DNA of 64,000 nt from Candidatus Yanofskybacteria bacterium (GCA_903897805.1 CAIUCV010000017.1:5725-69724), one strand, 5' to 3'; counted from the stretch's first letter, positions 20,584-56,181 are shown. Translations and numbers: made by a program. The notes: generated by a model from the sequence alone, not told the origin.

Positions 20584-20678
20584 CTAAATAGCTTGTGATT
20601 TTTTCACAATCTATTCCTAAGAGAAAATTTTTACCCTTGCCATTTACGGCAAGGAGAGCAAGATTAACTCTTTTTTAT

Positions 20679-22154
<1,476 letters not shown>

Positions 22155-35805: not shown

Positions 35806-36669
35806 ATGCCAAACTTAATTAGCCGAAAAATCAAAGATGAGTTGAACCAGCTAGGAATTGAACCCAAAAAATCGCTTGGGCAAAATTTTCTCATCAATGA
35901 AGGAATTTATAAAAAAATAGTCGTTGCTTTAGAGATAAAAAATAACGATATAATCGTTGAGGTTGGTCCTGGCTTGGGCACTCTGACCGGGTTTTTAGCC
36001 GAAAGCGGGGCCGAAATCATCGCCATCGAAAAAGACGGATTATTGACTGCCTACCTTAAAAATAAGTTCAAAAACAATAAAAATGTTACAATTATAGAAG
36101 GCGACATTTTAAAATTTAATCCCGTCGACTACCGATTACAAACTACCAATTACAAACTAGTCGGCAATATTCCCTATTACCTCACTTCGCGCTTAACAAG
36201 AACCGTTTTTGAAAAATGGCCTCGCCCCGAAAAAATCGTGCTGATGATCCAAAAAGAGGTCGCCCAGCGCATAATCGCCAAGCCGCCGGATATGAGTTTA
36301 CTTGCCGTTTCAGTTCAATACTATTCAGAACCGAAAATAATTAGTTACGTTTCCAGGAATAGTTTTTACCCGGCTCCAAAAGTTGACTCAGCGATTCTTC
36401 GGCTAGTTTCTAGTTTTCAGTTTCTAGCTTCTAGTAAAAAAACTAAAAACTCGCAACTAGAAACTAGAAGCTTCTTTCGGATTGTTAGGGCGGGCTTTGC
36501 GGGCAAAAGAAAACAACTGATCAACAACTTGGCAATGGGCTTGAAAATTTCAAAACAGGAAATTCAACAAAAGCTATCTCTCGTTGATATCAATCCCCAG
36601 CGTCGTGCTGAAACTCTAACTATTGAGGAATGGCAAAAAATTACAAACTCCTTATTTTCGCGGGACTAA
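35806..36669 (+). CDS. rsmA: 16S rRNA (adenine1518/1519-N6)-dimethyltransferase
   Basis: LGQNFLIN and EVGPGLG.LT SAM motifs. Confidence 0.9.
   Translation: MPNLISRKIKDELNQLGIEPKKSLGQNFLINEGIYKKIVVALEIKNNDIIVEVGPGLGTLTGFLAESGAEIIAIEKDGLLTAYLKNKFKNNKNVTIIEGDILKFNPVDYRLQTTNYKLVGNIPYYLTSRLTRTVFEKWPRPEKIVLMIQKEVAQRIIAKPPDMSLLAVSVQYYSEPKIISYVSRNSFYPAPKVDSAILRLVSSFQFLASSKKTKNSQLETRSFFRIVRAGFAGKRKQLINNLAMGLKISKQEIQQKLSLVDINPQRRAETLTIEEWQKITNSLFSRD
36403..36472. repeat. Nested tttctag / ctagaaa direct and inverted repeats, including a perfect 10-bp inverted repeat agcttctagt ... actagaagct, inside the ksgA CDS
   Basis: Read directly; in-frame and encodes SSFQFLASSKKTKNSQLETRS. Confidence 0.65.
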
Positions 36670-40317: not shown

Positions 40318-42636
40318 ATGGCAAAAAAGAAATTATGTATCGCGGTAATATCTACAGTAATAATTTTACTGGCGGTTTTAGTTCCTCAACATCAGGCCAG
40401 GGCTGATGCCGTGACGGACATAGCCCAGCAAGCTAGCAGGTTAATTTTGGCAGGGGTTGGCAAAGCAGTCGCGTGGGCCGCTCAAGGGTTTGATGCATTC
40501 GTCCAGTACCAAACTGATAACGCTGTTTTTGGTGTAAAAGTAGTTGATGATAGTTGGGCAACAATCAGAGACTTCGTAAATCTGTTTTTCATTCTGATAC
40601 TTATAATTATGGCCTTCGGCACGATTTTTGACATCAAAGAATATACCTGGAGAGATATGCTCGTGCCATTTCTGATTGTCGCTTTGCTTATCAACTTCAG
40701 TCTTGTAATAGGCCAGTATATTATAACCGTCGCAAACGGTCTGGCCGGGATTTTTTTAAGGACAATGACTCAGGGTGGTGGCAGTATTTCTGAAATATTT
40801 GCTCAAGGATTTTCCCAGGTTGGTATTGTCTCCGCGACACCGCAAGCGGGCATACTTAAGCAGATGGCCACTGCGGTGTGGGATTCAACACCAATCGGTA
40901 TAGTGTTAAATGCAGCCAGCCCTCCAACCAGCGTCTTGCTAACTGCAATTTTTGGCATCATCTTTTTGGTGATCACGTTTCTTGCTTTCTTGTCGGCTTT
41001 TATTTTTTCATTAGCAAGGATTTTTGTTTTATGGTTCCTGCTGATTATTTCTCCTATCGCCTGGCTCGGCTATGCACTTCCGAACCTTAGGAAGCAAACT
41101 TGGAGTGAGTGGTGGAAACATTTCTTCTGCTGGTGCTTTTTCTTACCTTATTATTTATTCTTTTTAATGTTTGCTGTGATTTTTATAAAGAATCAAGCCG
41201 TTTTTAAGCCCGTCCCTGGTTCTGCCTCCATCACAATTGGTTCTATGACGCTTAATAATCTCCTTATTTATGGTATCAGCTTGATTTTTCTTATCGGCGG
41301 CCTGTTTGTAGCAAGAAAAATGGCTTGTGCAACCGGTTCCGGCGTGAAAACTGTTTTCGGCAAAATAGATGCGGGTGTTAAGAAATACATGCCGGGGGCG
41401 GCTTATGTAAGAGGCGCATGGGGGGGAGTGAAGGCAAGGGGTGAGGAGATCCAAGAAAAAGGAGTTCTAGGTATTGGCGGAGCCCAGCGCACTCGTATAG
41501 CTGAAGCTGGGATAAAAGGTTGGGTAGCTGGAATACCTGGCTTAGGCCGAGTACCTGGAGCGAGAGAAGAGACTAATAGAGTAAGGTTAGAGGAAATCAT
41601 TAAGAAAGAGGTTCCTAAATTGGCGTTGGAATTACAAAGACTTTCGGCGGACGAGCGGAAGGAGTTCCTCCAAAAAGCACAAGACAGGAAGGGTGTTGCG
41701 GGCGAAGCGGCTTTGCTTGAATATGCCAAGCAGGGCTATTCCACTAAGGATGACTACGTAAAAGCAATAGACAAATTTGGCGGTGAAAATACTGCTCTTG
41801 GCAGGCAGTATTTGAAAAATCTTGTAGAAGCTAACCTTAGAGATTTATTTAGTAGCTCTACCGAAGAGCTTGATATTGCCAGACCAACCGATCCCACTCT
41901 CTCCAACCTTAGGCGTGAACTCTGGAAAGATTTAGCAAAACGAAATCAAATTTCAAGTAAAGAAGATTATAAAATTGCCAAGGATTTGTTCTCCTCGACA
42001 CCAACCGAACTTAAATCATTTCTTGATTCCATCAAGCCAGAATATATTGTCGGCACTAAGGAAACTAGACAAGACGCTATTAGAAATAGAACTCTCGGCG
42101 ATACTGACCTCGAAAGAAAGCTGGTAGAGTTCATGAAGGACAAGAAAGAGATTAACGATGTGCGACTTAGACAAGAGGCATTGGCTATCGTGGACGGAAA
42201 GGATACTATCGAGGGTCGCAACATAATAAATGAGATTAATAAGTTCAATCCGGCAATAAACATTGAGGCCGACTTGCGAGAAGAAAGAGGCACTCCAGTC
42301 GATCAATCCCTCTCTACTGAGGACAATGACAGAATCGTCGGAGAAATCGCTGATAAAATTGCTGAAAAAGAATTCGCAGACTTGCGGAAAATGTCAAGTA
42401 AATTCTGGGAAGATAAAAGAACTCAGCGGGCAGTACGTCAAACTTTTAATGGAGGGGAGCTCACTCAATTGCTAGAGAACGCGCCTAAAGAAATGAGAAG
42501 GGCATTAAAAAATCTGCCTGGGGGTGGGTCTACTACAGCAGGGGACGGCGAAACAAGAAGACCGGCTGGCTTTGTCCCTTCGGGCTCAACGGTAACTCCT
42601 GAGGGACGGGTAATCCCACCGGAAGATAGATCTTAG
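40318..42636 (+). CDS. VirB6/TrbL-like polytopic membrane protein with a large C-terminal hydrophilic coiled-coil domain
   Basis: Signal sequence, then ~6-7 TM helices across residues ~90-330, then a ~430-aa charged domain; sits next to the VirB3/VirB4 genes. Confidence 0.55.
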   Translation: MAKKKLCIAVISTVIILLAVLVPQHQARADAVTDIAQQASRLILAGVGKAVAWAAQGFDAFVQYQTDNAVFGVKVVDDSWATIRDFVNLFFILILIIMAFGTIFDIKEYTWRDMLVPFLIVALLINFSLVIGQYIITVANGLAGIFLRTMTQGGGSISEIFAQGFSQVGIVSATPQAGILKQMATAVWDSTPIGIVLNAASPPTSVLLTAIFGIIFLVITFLAFLSAFIFSLARIFVLWFLLIISPIAWLGYALPNLRKQTWSEWWKHFFCWCFFLPYYLFFLMFAVIFIKNQAVFKPVPGSASITIGSMTLNNLLIYGISLIFLIGGLFVARKMACATGSGVKTVFGKIDAGVKKYMPGAAYVRGAWGGVKARGEEIQEKGVLGIGGAQRTRIAEAGIKGWVAGIPGLGRVPGAREETNRVRLEEIIKKEVPKLALELQRLSADERKEFLQKAQDRKGVAGEAALLEYAKQGYSTKDDYVKAIDKFGGENTALGRQYLKNLVEANLRDLFSSSTEELDIARPTDPTLSNLRRELWKDLAKRNQISSKEDYKIAKDLFSSTPTELKSFLDSIKPEYIVGTKETRQDAIRNRTLGDTDLERKLVEFMKDKKEINDVRLRQEALAIVDGKDTIEGRNIINEINKFNPAINIEADLREERGTPVDQSLSTEDNDRIVGEIADKIAEKEFADLRKMSSKFWEDKRTQRAVRQTFNGGELTQLLENAPKEMRRALKNLPGGGSTTAGDGETRRPAGFVPSGSTVTPEGRVIPPEDRS

Positions 42637-43210: not shown

Positions 43211-44284
43211 TCAAGAAGTTGGATGCAAGAAATCGTCTGCCAGAATACTGTAGCAATGCGAGAGCTCGGAACAATAGTTTACGTAATCAAAGTAGTTGCT
43301 CTCCCAGTTGATAAACATATTATCCGTGGCTAAAAGAGCGTAATAAGCAGCATTCCTCGTATCGCTGGCCACGGTAATAAGATCGTCGGGCATCCCAGAA
43401 AGGCCAGCAATTAAAGTGTCGGCATCGCGGCATACCCTATCAAAGCTGGCTCTTGCCTGATAACGAAAAATCGTTTCGGCAGTAGACTTGTCTCCCTTGT
43501 TAAAGTAAGACATTGCGTTATTATAGCAATCCATGCCTTTGCTATAGAGTTGGTGTAGGTTCTCAACTTTAATCAACATATTAATCCCACGAGCTAGCTG
43601 ATTTGCCAGATTCTTTTCTTCGCCTGACAGCGGATAATAGGCAGAAATAACATTAAAATCCTCCAGTTCTAAAATCTTAACTAAAAAGACTGGGAGTTTT
43701 AGATACTCGGGTACTAAATACGTGAGGCAAATGCGAATACGACTTCGCCCATCGGGAGTTATCCCATCAAAACCTGAACTGGAATCGTGATCAAAATTTA
43801 CATAGGTTTGCCAGAGTAGATTCACACTTTCAGTCTTGGCTATGATCTTTTTAAGCTCGGCCATCCCGGATACGCGTCGAGTTTTTTCAGAATAGATAAG
43901 CGGCTCAACCGGTGGGCGGTCTTCTTCCTCATCTTCTTCCTCATAATCTTCTCCATCGTCGTGATCTTCAACAGCGTCCAGGAGTTCCCGGTGTCGGCGC
44001 TCTTCGTTTTCCTCGCGTTCTCTACTGCTTTCAACCTCAACAACTCTTTCTGTAACTCCTGCCGTGCTAGATCTTTCTTCTGTTTTTACTACCGATGCTT
44101 TTGCCCCCGCGGCGATTCTTTCGGCCAAATCCTTGTTTTTAAGATAGTCTGCATATCCCTGCCTTTGCCCTTCTACGTATGTCCCTTCGGCACATATTAA
44201 CGAAAGACCGTCAGGTCTTGATCCCGAAAAGCCGACTTCGTAGCCTGCTAAGCGGCTTCTTTCTTCACCTTTCTTGTCAGCCAT
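43211..44284 (-). CDS. Hypothetical protein with an acidic D/E-rich tract, encoded divergently inside the T4SS-like cluster
   Basis: ORF; low-complexity stretch DHDDGEDYEEEDEEED. Confidence 0.45.
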   Translation of the reverse strand: MADKKGEERSRLAGYEVGFSGSRPDGLSLICAEGTYVEGQRQGYADYLKNKDLAERIAAGAKASVVKTEERSSTAGVTERVVEVESSREREENEERRHRELLDAVEDHDDGEDYEEEDEEEDRPPVEPLIYSEKTRRVSGMAELKKIIAKTESVNLLWQTYVNFDHDSSSGFDGITPDGRSRIRICLTYLVPEYLKLPVFLVKILELEDFNVISAYYPLSGEEKNLANQLARGINMLIKVENLHQLYSKGMDCYNNAMSYFNKGDKSTAETIFRYQARASFDRVCRDADTLIAGLSGMPDDLITVASDTRNAAYYALLATDNMFINWESNYFDYVNYCSELSHCYSILADDFLHPTS

Positions 44285-44445: not shown

Positions 44446-44778
44446 ATGCGTTTTCAAGTTCCACAATTTATTGAGACGGAGAGCAAAATCGTCGGGCCGT
44501 TTACGCTCAAACAGTTTTTGTATTTGGCCGCCGGGGCGGTAATAATTTTCATTCTGCAATATGTTCTTAGTTTCACATATTTAATAATCGTTGGTACGCC
44601 AATTGCCGCCCTTGCCGCCGCTTTAGCTTTTTATAAAGTTGACGGCGTCCCGTTCCCACAATACCTATTGATGGCCCTATCGTTTCTAACCGGAACAAAG
44701 AAGTATGTTTTCAGCAAAGACCAAGGACAACAATACTTGCCGGAAAATAAATCCCAAGCATCAAATTCTAAGCCTTAA
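44446..44778 (+). CDS. VirB3/PrgI-like small membrane protein
   Basis: 110 aa; I.GPFTLKQF followed by two TM segments, as in Gram-positive VirB3-like proteins; immediately precedes VirB4. Confidence 0.6.
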   Translation: MRFQVPQFIETESKIVGPFTLKQFLYLAAGAVIIFILQYVLSFTYLIIVGTPIAALAAALAFYKVDGVPFPQYLLMALSFLTGTKKYVFSKDQGQQYLPENKSQASNSKP

Positions 44779-44788
44779 ACAAATTTCA

Positions 44789-45436
44789 ATGGCCAAACTG
44801 ACAAGGGAGCAAAAAGCGGTAAAGACAACTAGGGATTTTGTCCAAATCGCTGAAATTCGCGATACCGTTTTGGCGTTAAAAGACGGCTCGTTGAGATCGG
44901 TTGTTGAAATAGGTTCAATAAATTTTGAGCTGAAATCGGCAGACGAACAGGTTGCAATAGTCCAAGGGTTTCAAAACTTCATTAACTCTCTCGATTTCCC
45001 GCTTCAGATAGTGGTAAACTCACGCAAGTTGGACATTGAACCTTATTTAAAATCCCTTGAGGGGCTGACCGAAAGTTTAAAAAACGAATTGCTGAAAATC
45101 CAAGCCGTTGAATATACCAGATTCATTAAGGGCCTAACTGAATTAACCAACATAATGGCCAAGAAATTTTTTATTGTGGTTCCTTTTTACGCGATAGAGG
45201 CGGTGTCTCCGACCAAAGCCGGCTTTTTTGGCGCGATAAAAAGCGCGGTTATTCCGTCCAAGTTCGTAAAAACACTAACCGAAGAACAATTGGGAAATTA
45301 CAAAGTGCAGATAGGCCAAAGGATAGGAGTGATTGCTGAAGGGCTTAGCGGGCTGGGGCTTCAAACAAAAACTCTGGCGGGAGACGAACTTATGAATTTG
45401 TTTTATTCCTATTATAATCCCGGGGAACACCTATAA
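44789..45436 (+). CDS. VirB4/TraE-family ATPase, N-terminal fragment (split gene)
   Basis: F.QIAEIRD..L.L.DGS...VEIGSINFELKS..EQ matches the N-terminal region of Gram-positive VirB4 homologues. Ends at TAA 45434-45436, 2 nt before the next ORF, which is in another frame. The tracked ORF starts at 44705. Confidence 0.6.
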   Translation: MAKLTREQKAVKTTRDFVQIAEIRDTVLALKDGSLRSVVEIGSINFELKSADEQVAIVQGFQNFINSLDFPLQIVVNSRKLDIEPYLKSLEGLTESLKNELLKIQAVEYTRFIKGLTELTNIMAKKFFIVVPFYAIEAVSPTKAGFFGAIKSAVIPSKFVKTLTEEQLGNYKVQIGQRIGVIAEGLSGLGLQTKTLAGDELMNLFYSYYNPGEHL

Positions 45437-45438
45437 AT

Positions 45439-47220
45439 ATGGCGCTATTCGGCAGAAAACAATCAATCATCCCGACGGATATCCAGCCTAAAACGCTTGA
45501 TGATTTGCTAGCACCTTCGGCAATCAGCATTTCGTCAAACTACCTCCAGATAGGCAGCCAGTTTGCCCGCACGCTTTTTGTCGTAACTTACCCGAGATAT
45601 TTGAACACCAATTGGTTTTCGCCGGTCATAAATATGGACAGACCGATAGACGTTTCCATCTTCGTCCATCCGCAAGATACCGGGAACATTCTAAAACAGC
45701 TGAGGGACCGCCTCGGCAGATTAGAAGCTCAAGCGATGGAAGAGCAGGCAGCAGGCAAGGTAAGAGATCCGATACTGGAAACGGCGATTAATGACATCGA
45801 AATGTTGCGCGACAAGCTTCAACAGGGGACGGACAGGTTTTTTGAGCTGGGATTGTATATAACGATTTACGGTGATTCCACAAAAGAACTTGACGAAACG
45901 GAAAACAAAATAAAAGCGATCCTTGATGCTCAGCTTATTTATTCCAAGCAGGCGACTTTCAGGATGAAAGAGGGATTTTTCTCAACGATGCCCCTGAACG
46001 ATGACCAGCTTGCCGTCCACACTTCTTTAAATACCGAGCCCATTTCCTCGCTCTTCCCGTTTGTTTCTTACGACCTTACGGCTGATAAAGGGATACTTTA
46101 CGGAATAAACACCCACAATAACTCTCTGGTTTTGTTTGACAGATTTGCTTTGGAGAACGGCAATATGGTTGTCTTCGGCAAGGCCGGCGGGGGAAAAAGT
46201 TACGCCGTAAAACTGGAAATTTTAAGAAGCTTGATGTTCAGCACTCAGGTTTTTGTCATTGACCCAGAAAATGAATACAAGTTCCTGTCGGATACCGTGG
46301 GCGGGATTTCAATCAAGATATCTATCGCTTCGGACCAGCATATTAATCCTTTTGACTTGCCTGCGCCTCTGCCCGATGAGAGTCCGGCAGACGTTCTGCG
46401 CTCTCATGTATTGAATTTGCTCGGCTTGTTCAAAATTATGCTTGGCGCTCTCACTCCCGAAGAAGAAGCGATTCTTGATGAAGCCGTAAACCAGACATAT
46501 GCCCTAAAAGACATAACCTCGGCCACAACCGACCTTAAAAGCGCTACGCCGCCCTTAATGAGCGATTTGCAAAGCGTCTTGGAAGGAATGACGGGGACAG
46601 AATCATTAGCCATCAGAATCAAAAAATATACCGAGGGAAGTTTTGCCGGTTTCCTAAACAACCCGACCAATGTTCAGCTGGATAATCAGCTTATAACATT
46701 CAGTATCCGCGATATGGAAGAGGAATTAAGACCGATAGCAATGTATCTGGTCTTGAATTTCATCTGGACCCAGGTTAGGACCGAGCTCAAGAAGCGCATA
46801 TTGGTGGTTGACGAGGCCTGGGTGTTGATGAAGTATGAAGCTGGTGCGGCGTTTTTGTTCAATATGGCCAAACGTTGCCGCAAATACTTCTTGGGTCTTA
46901 CCACGATTTCCCAAGACATTCCCGACTTTATGTCTTCGCCGTACGGAAAGCCGATCGTTACCAACTCGTCGCTGCAGTTGCTTTTAAAGCAATCCACGGC
47001 GTCAATTGAGCTGGTAAAAAGCACCTTTAATCTCACGGACGCTGAAAAGTTCTTCCTCATGGAATCGCGTGTCGGGCATGGTCTGTTCTTCGCTGGCGCT
47101 AATCACGTCGCATTACGGGTCGTTGCCTCTTACGCGGAAGACCAGATAATAACCTCCGACCCCAGACAGATACTTGAGATAGAACAGGCCAAAAAGGAAT
47201 TGGCTCAACAAGCAACTTAA
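45439..47220 (+). CDS. VirB4/TraE-family ATPase, central and C-terminal fragment
   Basis: Walker A GKAGGGKSY, Walker B ILVVDEAW, GLTTISQD motif. Confidence 0.8.
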   Translation: MALFGRKQSIIPTDIQPKTLDDLLAPSAISISSNYLQIGSQFARTLFVVTYPRYLNTNWFSPVINMDRPIDVSIFVHPQDTGNILKQLRDRLGRLEAQAMEEQAAGKVRDPILETAINDIEMLRDKLQQGTDRFFELGLYITIYGDSTKELDETENKIKAILDAQLIYSKQATFRMKEGFFSTMPLNDDQLAVHTSLNTEPISSLFPFVSYDLTADKGILYGINTHNNSLVLFDRFALENGNMVVFGKAGGGKSYAVKLEILRSLMFSTQVFVIDPENEYKFLSDTVGGISIKISIASDQHINPFDLPAPLPDESPADVLRSHVLNLLGLFKIMLGALTPEEEAILDEAVNQTYALKDITSATTDLKSATPPLMSDLQSVLEGMTGTESLAIRIKKYTEGSFAGFLNNPTNVQLDNQLITFSIRDMEEELRPIAMYLVLNFIWTQVRTELKKRILVVDEAWVLMKYEAGAAFLFNMAKRCRKYFLGLTTISQDIPDFMSSPYGKPIVTNSSLQLLLKQSTASIELVKSTFNLTDAEKFFLMESRVGHGLFFAGANHVALRVVASYAEDQIITSDPRQILEIEQAKKELAQQAT

Positions 47221-47223
47221 ACT

Positions 47224-47673
47224 TTGGTTTGGCAAGCAATGGAATCAACCTCTGAACAACAATACCAATACGCTCTTGAAGAAGATCGGGCGCGCCAGCG
47301 CCTAGAAGCGGAGAGCTTGGCACAACAGCAGGGGTCCTCGCAAGACAAAATGGGATGGGGGATTTTCATTGTTGCCCTCATTTTAAGTTTAATAGCCGAC
47401 GCGGTTGAACTTATCACCGCAGGAACTCTTGGTTGGTTTGTGGGCCTGTTTATTGATTTGATATTGCTCGTTATGCTAGGATTTTCCAAGGCGGGAAGAA
47501 AACAGTTTAAAAAATGGATATGGGGACCCTTGATAGAAACAGTGCCGATTCTCTCCGCGGTTCCTCTCTTCCGTGTCGCTTTTCTGATTTGGGCATTTGC
47601 CTCCTCCCGCAGTAAAACACTTCGGGCAGTTTCTAAGGTAGCATCGGCTGGTTTGTCTAAGAAAGCGGTTTGA
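47224..47673 (+). CDS. Small membrane protein (149 aa)
   Basis: Two to three predicted TM segments, directly after VirB4. Confidence 0.45.
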   Translation: MVWQAMESTSEQQYQYALEEDRARQRLEAESLAQQQGSSQDKMGWGIFIVALILSLIADAVELITAGTLGWFVGLFIDLILLVMLGFSKAGRKQFKKWIWGPLIETVPILSAVPLFRVAFLIWAFASSRSKTLRAVSKVASAGLSKKAV

Positions 47674-51260: not shown

Positions 51261-51758
51261 TTACTTCAAGAACTGCTCCGGCTGCGGCTTTACGATTATT
51301 CTGCGTCTGGGTTCCTGCCCGACGCTCTCGGTTTGAATCTCTTTATAAGATGCGAGTTCCGTGTGCACTAATCTTCTTTCATAAGAGCTCATCGGCGAAA
51401 GGGCCTCGGCTCTTTGTGTCTGTATCACTCTCCGGGCCACATCTCTGGCAATGCCAATCAAGTAATTGGTTCTGGATTTGCGGTAATCATTCACGTCAAT
51501 GATAAAATGCAGTTCGTTCTCCGGATCAGCTAATTTGCGGCTTGCCAACAGTCGGACGAGGCGCTCAAAGGCCTCCAAATTTTGTCCGTTTTTCCCTATG
51601 AGCATGCTAAGGTCTTTGTCGGACTCAATGGAAATAGTGGAGAGCTTGCTCTCGCTCGGCCCGTTTTCTGCAAACTTTACTTCACCCTCAAAACCGACCC
51701 TTTGGAGCAGGTCTTTGGCAATTTCTACAATCTTGTTTTTTTTGTCATCGGTGTTCAT
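51261..51758 (-). CDS. jag: Jag/KhpB-like R3H-domain RNA-binding protein
   Basis: C-terminal R3H motif; position immediately downstream of yidC. Confidence 0.75.
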   Translation of the reverse strand: MNTDDKKNKIVEIAKDLLQRVGFEGEVKFAENGPSESKLSTISIESDKDLSMLIGKNGQNLEAFERLVRLLASRKLADPENELHFIIDVNDYRKSRTNYLIGIARDVARRVIQTQRAEALSPMSSYERRLVHTELASYKEIQTESVGQEPRRRIIVKPQPEQFLK

Positions 51759-52474
51759 GTTTCGGTTCGGGCTTTGTATTTTTTATTGATGTATAACTGC
51801 TCAAATATAGAAAACATAGTCGCCACAATCCAGTAAAGAACCAGCCCGGCGGGTAAATTCCAAGCAATGATTATAACCATAACCGGGAAGAAATACAACA
51901 TTTGGCGGCTTGCCTTTACAGCAGGAGGTTCGGGCTGACCTTTAACGGCTGATGCCTGAAATGACACTGCCTGCTTTGACTGCACCCACTGCAATACGGC
52001 GGCCATAACGGCCATTACGGGAGAGTTTTTGGCAAGATTAACTAGGCCAAAAGCCATTTCTTTTATGGCGCCGGGATTGTGGACAAAAGAATAAAGAAAT
52101 TGCAGGGTTTCCGGCTTAAACCCAGACCCCAGGGCTTTATAAAGCGCCAACAGTACCGGGAGCTGAATTAACAGGGGGAGACAGCCGCTGAAAGGATTAA
52201 CCTTGTGTTCTTTATATAAAGCCATCGTCGCTTGCCCCAGCGCCTGCTTGTCGTTCTTATATTTTTCCTGGAGTTCTCTTATTTTGGGCTGCAGTTGGTT
52301 CATCTCTTTCTGCGAGACCAGTGACTTGATCGACAGGGGAACGAAGGCGAACCTTATCAGCACGGTCAGTAATATGATGGCCAAGCCAAAATCCCCTCCG
52401 GGTATTATGTTGTAAATAAATACCAAGAAGTTGAACAGAGGACGAAAAAGGACTTGGTTATAAATTTCAACCAT
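51755..52474 (-). CDS. yidC: Membrane protein insertase YidC (short form)
   Basis: Conserved start FNFLVFIYN....GDFGLAIILLT..IR and 5-TM core. Confidence 0.9.
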   Translation of the reverse strand: MVEIYNQVLFRPLFNFLVFIYNIIPGGDFGLAIILLTVLIRFAFVPLSIKSLVSQKEMNQLQPKIRELQEKYKNDKQALGQATMALYKEHKVNPFSGCLPLLIQLPVLLALYKALGSGFKPETLQFLYSFVHNPGAIKEMAFGLVNLAKNSPVMAVMAAVLQWVQSKQAVSFQASAVKGQPEPPAVKASRQMLYFFPVMVIIIAWNLPAGLVLYWIVATMFSIFEQLYINKKYKARTET

Positions 52475-55092: not shown

Positions 55093-56181
55093 ATGAAGAT
55101 AATAATAAATCACAATAAGCTACTGACGGCTCTACGGATTGTAGAAAGAATCGTTTCAAGAAATGTATCATTGCCAATTCTAAGTGCAATCCTCCTTAGG
55201 ATTGAAAATGGACGCTTAAAACTATCAGCGACAAATCTGGAGATCGGCATTAATTATTGGGTTGGCGCAAAAGTGGATGAGGATGGAGAAGTTGCCGTTC
55301 CGGCTCGCGTTTTTTCAGATTTCATCAGTAATATTACTGATGAAAAAGTAATTATTACGACGAATAAAAATATAATTTCAATTAATTCTGAGCACTACAA
55401 GACTCAAATTCTAGGCATGGAAGCTAAAGATTTTCCGATAATCCCGAAGGTCAAAAAGGAAACGTCATTTAAAATTAACAGTCAGGCGCTGAAAACCTCA
55501 TTAATCAGCGTTTCGGATTCTATATCTCTTTCGGAAACCAGACCGGAGTTGAGTGGTGTATATGTTAATATCTCAAGTAACAAAGCCGAGTTTGCAGCAA
55601 CCGACAGCTTTCGTTTGTCCGAAAAAATTACCGTTCTAAAAGAAGGGGTAAATAAAGCAGTTATTATTCCCCGCAATGCCATAGTTGAGATTGTAAGGAT
55701 GCTGGAAAACACCGATGAAGAAATTAATGTAGCTATTTCCGAAAACCAAGTTTTTCTTTATAATGACGACTTTGAATTTGTCTCGCGTTTGATTGATGGC
55801 CGTTATCCCGACTACAAAAAAGTAATTCCAGAAAAATTTATATCCCTCGTCAAGGTTAACAAAGGGGAATTTGAAAGAAACGTCCGATTGGCCAGTATTT
55901 TCTCATCAAATATATCCGACGTCAGGATAAAGACCGCAAAAGATTCAATGGAAGTTTCGGCCAAGAATAGCGACTGCGGTGACATTACATCGCACCTGGC
56001 CTGCGAGTTAAAAAACAAACCATTTGAGATTTCGGTTAATTACCACTATCTTCTCGACGGGCTTAAAGTGATACCAACGGAGAATGTAATCGTAGAGTTT
56101 ACCGGCGAGGGCAGTCCATTGGTGCTTCGGGGCGACGATCTTAAAGACCAAACTTACGTTATAATGCCCTTAAGGAGTTAG
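55093..56181 (+). CDS. dnaN: DNA polymerase III beta sliding clamp
   Basis: Directly follows dnaA; ~360 aa with the three-domain clamp pattern. Confidence 0.9.
   Translation: MKIIINHNKLLTALRIVERIVSRNVSLPILSAILLRIENGRLKLSATNLEIGINYWVGAKVDEDGEVAVPARVFSDFISNITDEKVIITTNKNIISINSEHYKTQILGMEAKDFPIIPKVKKETSFKINSQALKTSLISVSDSISLSETRPELSGVYVNISSNKAEFAATDSFRLSEKITVLKEGVNKAVIIPRNAIVEIVRMLENTDEEINVAISENQVFLYNDDFEFVSRLIDGRYPDYKKVIPEKFISLVKVNKGEFERNVRLASIFSSNISDVRIKTAKDSMEVSAKNSDCGDITSHLACELKNKPFEISVNYHYLLDGLKVIPTENVIVEFTGEGSPLVLRGDDLKDQTYVIMPLRS

Follow-up and report, generated by a model that had tools for sequence, protein, structure and literature searches.

A conserved and very probably genuine two-gene VirB4 in a chromosomal T4SS cluster of Patescibacteria

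Is a VirB4 ATPase that appears to be interrupted by a stop codon a broken gene, an artefact of sequencing or assembly, a recoded gene, or a genuine pair of genes? This question is raised by a locus in the window, i.e. the whole 64,000-nt stretch of DNA analysed here, in which the original prediction had described two adjacent ORFs in different frames that together would reconstitute a VirB4 of about 810 aa. Direct reading of the sequence bore out this description: the first ORF ends at TAA 45434-45436, and after 2 nt the second starts with ATG 45439 in the -1 frame relative to the first (frame 1, as compared with frame 2 for the ORF from 44705), the two products adding up to 215 + 593 = 808 aa. 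The translation of the maximal ORF at 44705..45436 includes ...MAKLTREQKAVKTTRDFVQIAEIRDTVLALKDGSLRSVVEIGSINFELKSADEQ.... While its stop had been placed correctly, its proposed start had not, as 44705 merely marks the first ATG in the maximal ORF, and an ORF begun there overlaps prgI upstream; the start that is conserved in all homologues of ORF1 is ATG 44789 (MAKLTREQ...), 10 nt past the prgI stop. The frame of ORF2 is open only from 45418, and both frames are open over 19 nt (45418-45436). No promoter-like or terminator-like site is present at the ORF1/ORF2 junction. The positions of all features are summarized in Table 1.

Table 1. The prgI-ORF1-ORF2 run and its surroundings, with positions counted from the first letter of the window.
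Feature	Position	Strand	Remarks
prgI	44446..44778	+	110 aa; VirB3-like small membrane protein; opens the prgI-trsD-virB4 run
ORF1, TrsD-like, detached VirB4 N-terminal domain	44789..45436	+	215 aa; soluble; C-terminal motif YYNPGxHL
Junction TAA-AT-ATG	45434..45441	+	ORF1 stop, 2-nt spacer, ORF2 start; read directly
ORF2, VirB4-family ATPase	45439..47220	+	593 aa; starts only after the initial ~190-290 positions in profiles of full-length VirB4
Walker A GKAGGGKS	46177..46200	+	ORF2 aa 247-254; located by script
Walker B-like ILVVDEAW	46798..46821	+	in ORF2; located by script
772-aa polytopic membrane protein	40318..42636	+	~6 TM-like segments; homologue in 64 of 80 related loci
ksgA-like, RrnaAD	35806-36669
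R3H (jag) gene	51261-51758
yidC	51755-52474
dnaA	53476-54846		~6 kb downstream of virB4
dnaN	55093-56181

The second ORF has the properties of a VirB4/TraC-family ATPase, namely a P-loop NTPase with Walker A and Walker B motifs, the former located in this ORF as had been predicted, and homology to the VirB4 C-terminal domain. Its product matches P-loop_TraG (1.2e-21, 77 bits), AAA_10, DUF87 and the C-terminal end of CagE_TrbE_VirB in Pfam, and in the PDB the VirB4 C-terminal domain 4ag5 (2e-42) and TrwK (7e-9). The VirB4 unit is adjoined by the gene of a VirB3-like partner, whose product matches Pfam PF12666 PrgI (E 8e-11, 42.8 bits at a cut-off of 27) and contains two hydrophobic, TM-like segments; 76 of 80 related loci also contain a prgI homologue. 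A complete N-terminal domain is absent from the ORF2 polypeptide, which covers positions 186-733 of the 752 positions of NCBIfam NF045971 conju_CD1110 (352.7 bits, cut-off 325) and positions 293-891 of the 894 of NF045975 VirB4_plasma. As judged from these profile alignments, the missing region is encoded by ORF1. The latter has no TM-like segment and matches positions 95-233 of NF045975 (E 9e-9) and positions 12-118 of NF045971 (E 1e-3), in agreement with the earlier assignment of the first ORF to the VirB4 N-terminus. ORF1 and ORF2 are colinear and complementary, and ORF2 lacks the part that ORF1 provides, which argues for a fission of VirB4 and not for a duplication of its N-terminus. On the alignment evidence, the two ORFs correspond to complementary, non-overlapping parts of a full-length VirB4.

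With its size of ~200-230 aa, its predicted solubility and the position of its gene between a VirB3-like gene and virB4, ORF1 fits the traits of TrsD. Its match to NCBIfam NF041427 TrsD/TraD (201 positions) reaches E 1.3e-4 and 21.9 bits, far under the cut-off of 200, and ORF1 is thus a remote homologue and not a TrsD/TraD member by the NCBI criterion; ORF2 does not match this family. A search of ORF1 and two of its homologues against a local copy of Pfam, from which PF26593 is probably missing, gave no match even at E <= 10. Precomputed matches to PF26593.2 'TraC-like' include all 120 homologues listed as well as the fused proteins described below. When the ORF1 family was searched as a profile against PDB sequences, only chance matches were returned (E > 1).

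A search of 5.8 billion proteins yielded 1077 homologues of ORF1, the best 120 of which (55-95% identity) range from 200 to 273 aa, with most of them at 206-220 aa, are all of Patescibacteria/CPR origin and have the YYNPGxHL C-terminus in common. The nearest among them (95-82% identity) comprise 210-215 aa and end with the same terminal residue of this motif, and the nearest homologues of both ORFs stem from Patescibacteria MAGs throughout. The original prediction had proposed a comparison of orthologous loci as a check on whether the split is conserved. Species-representative genomes were scanned, which identified 518 relatives, and the best 80 (39-64% identity to ORF1) were examined. At all 80 loci, an ORF1 stop is followed by a VirB4 gene that is 51-84% identical to ORF2, and a fusion of the two occurs in none of these best 80 of the 518 relatives. 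The two genes are -29 to +411 nt apart, with a median spacing of 7 nt; their relative frame is 0 at 22 loci, 1 at 26 and 2 at 32, and several loci display ATGA- or TAATG-type overlaps. In near relatives, ORF2 starts alike with a MALFG/MSLFG-type sequence, 1-8 nt past the stop. Each ORF has homologues in the hundreds to thousands, so that the pattern goes far beyond what chance would produce. Thus, the two-gene VirB4 is conserved across at least 80 species, in each of which the VirB4 gene has its own start codon.

Single-chain counterparts do occur in nature. A profile of the ORF1 family was searched against 1.84 billion cluster representatives, 3286 of which are related to ORF1; the best 150 of these clusters include two long proteins, P0250 (797 aa) and P0263 (898 aa). 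In P0250, residues 8-210 form an ORF1-like part (38% identity, E 8e-41) and residues 229-796 an ORF2-like part (55% identity). Its gene is located directly 3' of prgI and near dnaA (locus L082), and its 90%-identity cluster consists of three members from separate contigs, all of 797 aa, two of which are named Ca. Colwellbacteria. When P0250 itself was used as a query, 118 of the best 120 clusters (59-100% identity) were single chains of 775-807 aa. These proteins of ~790 aa, mostly from Ca. Colwellbacteria, form a sister clade to the split form. The possibility raised earlier that the first ORF encodes an unrelated protein does not agree with these data, since ORF1 aligns to the N-terminal 210 residues of the fused VirB4. 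In a joint alignment, the end of ORF1 and the start of ORF2 in the window both map to a variable linker in the fused proteins, which is ~25 residues long and flanked by the conserved motifs YYNP and AP...NYL.IG, and no residue block is lost or duplicated at the split. As a stand-in for a complex of ORF1 and ORF2, the structure of the natural fusion was modelled; the predicted fold superposes on full-length TrwK/VirB4, with a pLDDT of ~60 at the linker versus 85-88 on either side. Two further proteins of ~600 aa from the fused clade, P0289 and P0385, were considered as examples of recent fission and rejected, as they begin with 'MELYFNYYNP...' within the C-terminus of the TrsD part; from their sequences, they are more likely to be gene calls downstream of a frameshift.

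Taken together, we consider it very probable that the locus represents a genuine, conserved two-gene VirB4 in a chromosomal T4SS cluster of Patescibacteria (CPR) with the gene order prgI-ORF1-ORF2. Among the other readings, the one that survives best holds that ORF1 was derived from the VirB4 N-terminus and now serves as an independent accessory factor, e.g. as a chaperone-like adaptor or a regulator. Some members of the ORF1 family have low-complexity C-terminal tails up to ~440 aa, which would be consistent with such a role. However, ORF2 has no copy of its own of the region provided by ORF1, virB4 adjoins ORF1 at each of the 80 loci, and the fused forms hold both parts in one chain for which a full-length VirB4 fold is predicted; an independent role of this kind is therefore unlikely. 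Far less probable still is that the split results from an assembly or sequencing indel or marks a frameshift pseudogene, in which case the organism would have, or would recently have had, a single 808-aa virB4. Several observations might favour such an origin: the junction is located just past a CCCGGGG run, a typical site of indel errors at which a single additional base would bring the two frames together, single-chain forms exist in the sister clade, and P0289 and P0385 resemble products of this kind. Against this stands the finding that all 80 related species have the stop and a separate start, and a 1-nt indel at 45418-45438 is very unlikely for this reason. Similarly, both the uniform length and C-terminal motif of the nearest ORF1 homologues and the common ORF2 start shortly past the stop in near relatives contradict a recent disruption, and the best 120 homologues of ORF1 are likewise short, separate proteins. 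Least credible, to the point of being negligible, is a programmed -1 ribosomal frameshift or a stop-codon bypass that would yield a single fused VirB4, as, in spite of the -1 frame of ORF2 and the 19-nt overlap, inspection by eye revealed no X XXY YYZ slippery heptamer in 45418-45436, ORF2 has its own conserved ATG, and the variation of frame and gap among the relatives implies that a recoding signal could not be conserved. The presence of a stop and a separate VirB4 gene at every one of the 80 loci, with variable gap and frame, thus speaks decisively against an indel in the assembly, against a pseudogene and against programmed frameshifting, and of the options named in the original prediction it is the genuine two-polypeptide VirB4 that was upheld.

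For the two-gene VirB4, the following sequence of events might be envisaged. The genes prgI, ORF1 and ORF2 would be co-transcribed, and the 2-nt spacing would couple translation of ORF2 to that of ORF1. As suggested by the natural fusions and by homology, the ORF1 polypeptide may then bind to ORF2 non-covalently and rebuild the N-terminal domain of VirB4, which in turn would contact PrgI/VirB3 at the membrane as it does in single-chain VirB4. The hexameric ATPase assembled in this way would power the T4SS. It might further be speculated that the split itself is functional, and that a separate but coupled N-terminal domain allows the cell to vary or exchange this domain of the hexamer and, thereby, to regulate docking to PrgI/VirB3. 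This proposal is a doubtful one. Since fusions of the Colwellbacteria type occur alongside split forms within Patescibacteria, and in pGO1-type plasmids, with a common breakpoint, the pair would offer a natural system in which the function of the VirB4 N-terminal domain can be studied in trans.

The arrangement as such is the normal and already published combination of TrsD and VirB4 that is found in pGO1-type plasmids and in Patescibacteria. Of the T4SS components encoded next to virB4 in Patescibacteria, TrsD has been reported as the most abundant, with 2,272 homologues in 2,221 assemblies, 1,664 of the homologues adjoining virB4, and as distantly homologous to the N-terminal part of VirB4 (Quinonero-Coronel et al. 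2025, PMC12102498). The same study neither speaks of a 'split' nor reports fused forms. Guglielmini et al. 2014 do not name 'TrsD' in their main text, and the TrsD-VirB4 homology is therefore credited to PMC12102498 only. The literature on pELF plasmids and on TraF of pIP501 was also considered and was set aside, as 'TraD' is VirD4-like there or is not discussed. Tn-seq showed the TrsD homologue of Ca. Southlakia epibionticum to be essential (Wang et al. 2023, PMC10633639; see also PMC12102498), and the Patescibacteria T4SS is reported as a machine that one cultivated strain requires for its epibiotic growth. Our analysis makes a modest addition to these findings, which is the occurrence of split and fused forms with one breakpoint in a variable linker. 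In the literature considered here, we found no statement of such a fusion/fission polymorphism of VirB4, of the linker breakpoint in common with pSK41, or of the large fused clade. The common breakpoint provides a simple account of TrsD, so far of 'function unknown', as the N-terminal domain of VirB4 provided in trans. The identification of the locus also conveys a warning for annotation: a VirB4 of ~600 aa that follows a 'hypothetical protein' of ~215 aa is not a broken gene.

Among the known systems, the single-chain VirB4/TraC proteins (TrwK of R388, PDB 7o41/7o42; CD1110; P0250) exhibit colinear homology to ORF1 and ORF2 over the whole length, and in the case of TrwK the likeness extends to the predicted fold. 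They differ from the window in that here the first ~215 residues make up a polypeptide of their own, which ends at its own stop codon, and the ATPase is initiated at a separate start codon. The staphylococcal plasmid pSK41, which belongs like pGO1 to the pGO1 subclass of MPF_FATA with TrsD/TraD and TrsE/TraE, is closer in its organization, as it harbours, like the window, the VirB3-like TrsC, a trsD of 227 aa, annotated as 'TrsD/TraD family conjugative transfer protein', and a VirB4 of 672 aa. By hhalign, pSK41 TrsD weakly matches the ORF1 family (E 2.2e-4, probability 45%, 26% over 174 columns), the match spanning residues 9-210 of ORF1 and 29-216 of pSK41 TrsD, including the C-terminal FY..Y(N/D) motif. 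pSK41 TraE/VirB4 and ORF2 are aligned by BLASTP (1e-48) from residue 22 to residue 36, i.e. from the N-terminus onward, which indicates the same breakpoint. The identical gene order and breakpoint identify ORF1 as a TrsD-like, detached N-terminal domain of VirB4. Differences remain: the locus in the window is chromosomal, whereas pSK41 is conjugative and has both a relaxase and a coupling protein, and the pGO1-type VirB4 is not the top NCBIfam match of ORF2, for which the CD1110 (CTn2-type) VirB4 family scores best. The closest counterparts are the MPF_FATA-related T4SS of the Patescibacteria themselves, the clusters of which are often found near dnaA/dnaN, ksgA and rnpA (PMC12102498). In the window, virB4 is likewise accompanied by trsD and prgI close to dnaA/dnaN, as is characteristic of the chromosomal T4SS of this clade. 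The 772-aa protein encoded upstream has no match in Pfam, NCBIfam or PHROGs, the last of which yielded nothing for seven neighbouring ORFs, and is probably a membrane component of the T4SS. As in the loci described for Paceibacteria (PMC12102498), the cluster is part of the chromosome, at a distance of ~6 kb from dnaA/dnaN, and ksgA, yidC and the R3H (jag) gene are located close by. With prgI, a trsD-like gene and then virB4, the window differs in nothing substantive from the T4SS of Patescibacteria.

In a large clade of Patescibacteria made up of Ca. Colwellbacteria and relatives (P0250 and P0271-P0389 among the proteins retrieved), the TrsD part, which in the window is the detached N-terminal domain of VirB4, and the VirB4 ATPase part form a single protein of 775-807 aa. 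At L082, the locus of P0250 and the one locus of this clade whose gene context was inspected, the fused gene lies immediately 3' of prgI, which encodes the VirB3-like protein, and near dnaA. Two members of the clade, P0289 (600 aa) and P0385 (601 aa), are short VirB4 proteins whose N-termini fall within the C-terminus of the TrsD part (MELYFNYYNP...). Both look like gene calls made 3' of the point at which a gene that is otherwise fused is interrupted by a frameshift or stop, and genuine frameshift cases may therefore exist within the fused clade. In some TrsD-like proteins, P0161 (443 aa) and P0194 (432 aa) among them, the YNPEE motif is followed by a low-complexity C-terminal tail of 100-230 residues with a high content of Pro, Ala, Gln and Thr.

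A trsD-virB4 locus typical of Patescibacteria was also found in four metagenome-assembled genome records whose names point to predators of the Proteobacteria or Bdellovibrio type; of these records, three are titled Micavibrio (L025, L032 and L036) and one Pseudobdellovibrionaceae (L039). The taxonomy or the binning of these records is probably wrong.

Features of the window outside trsD and virB4
Feature	Window coordinates	Strand	Description
16S rRNA gene	20673-22152		complete
772-aa protein	40318-42636		about six TM-like segments
357-aa ORF	43211-44284	minus	between T4SS membrane genes and prgI
Promoter-like site	44350-44322	minus	sigma-70 consensus TTGACA-17-TATAAT, 12/12 match
149-aa ORF	47224-47673		three TM-like segments; TTG start; 3 nt past virB4 stop

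Neither a 23S nor a 5S match was obtained elsewhere within the 64-kb window, which suggests that the 16S gene is not linked to the other rRNA genes.

The surroundings of trsD and virB4 were compared with those in the best 80 of 518 species-level genomic relatives; in all of these 80, an ORF1 (trsD) homologue is followed by a separate virB4. The 357-aa ORF, which is preceded on its own strand by the perfect sigma-70 consensus, gave no match in Pfam, NCBIfam or PHROG, and a homologue was absent from all 80 related loci searched; it may represent a lineage-specific insertion into the T4SS cluster. Homologues of the 149-aa ORF directly following virB4 occur in only five of these loci. The 772-aa membrane protein, likewise without a family match in Pfam, NCBIfam or PHROG, is kept beside trsD-virB4 in 64 of the 80 loci and is a candidate divergent VirB6-like component of the channel.
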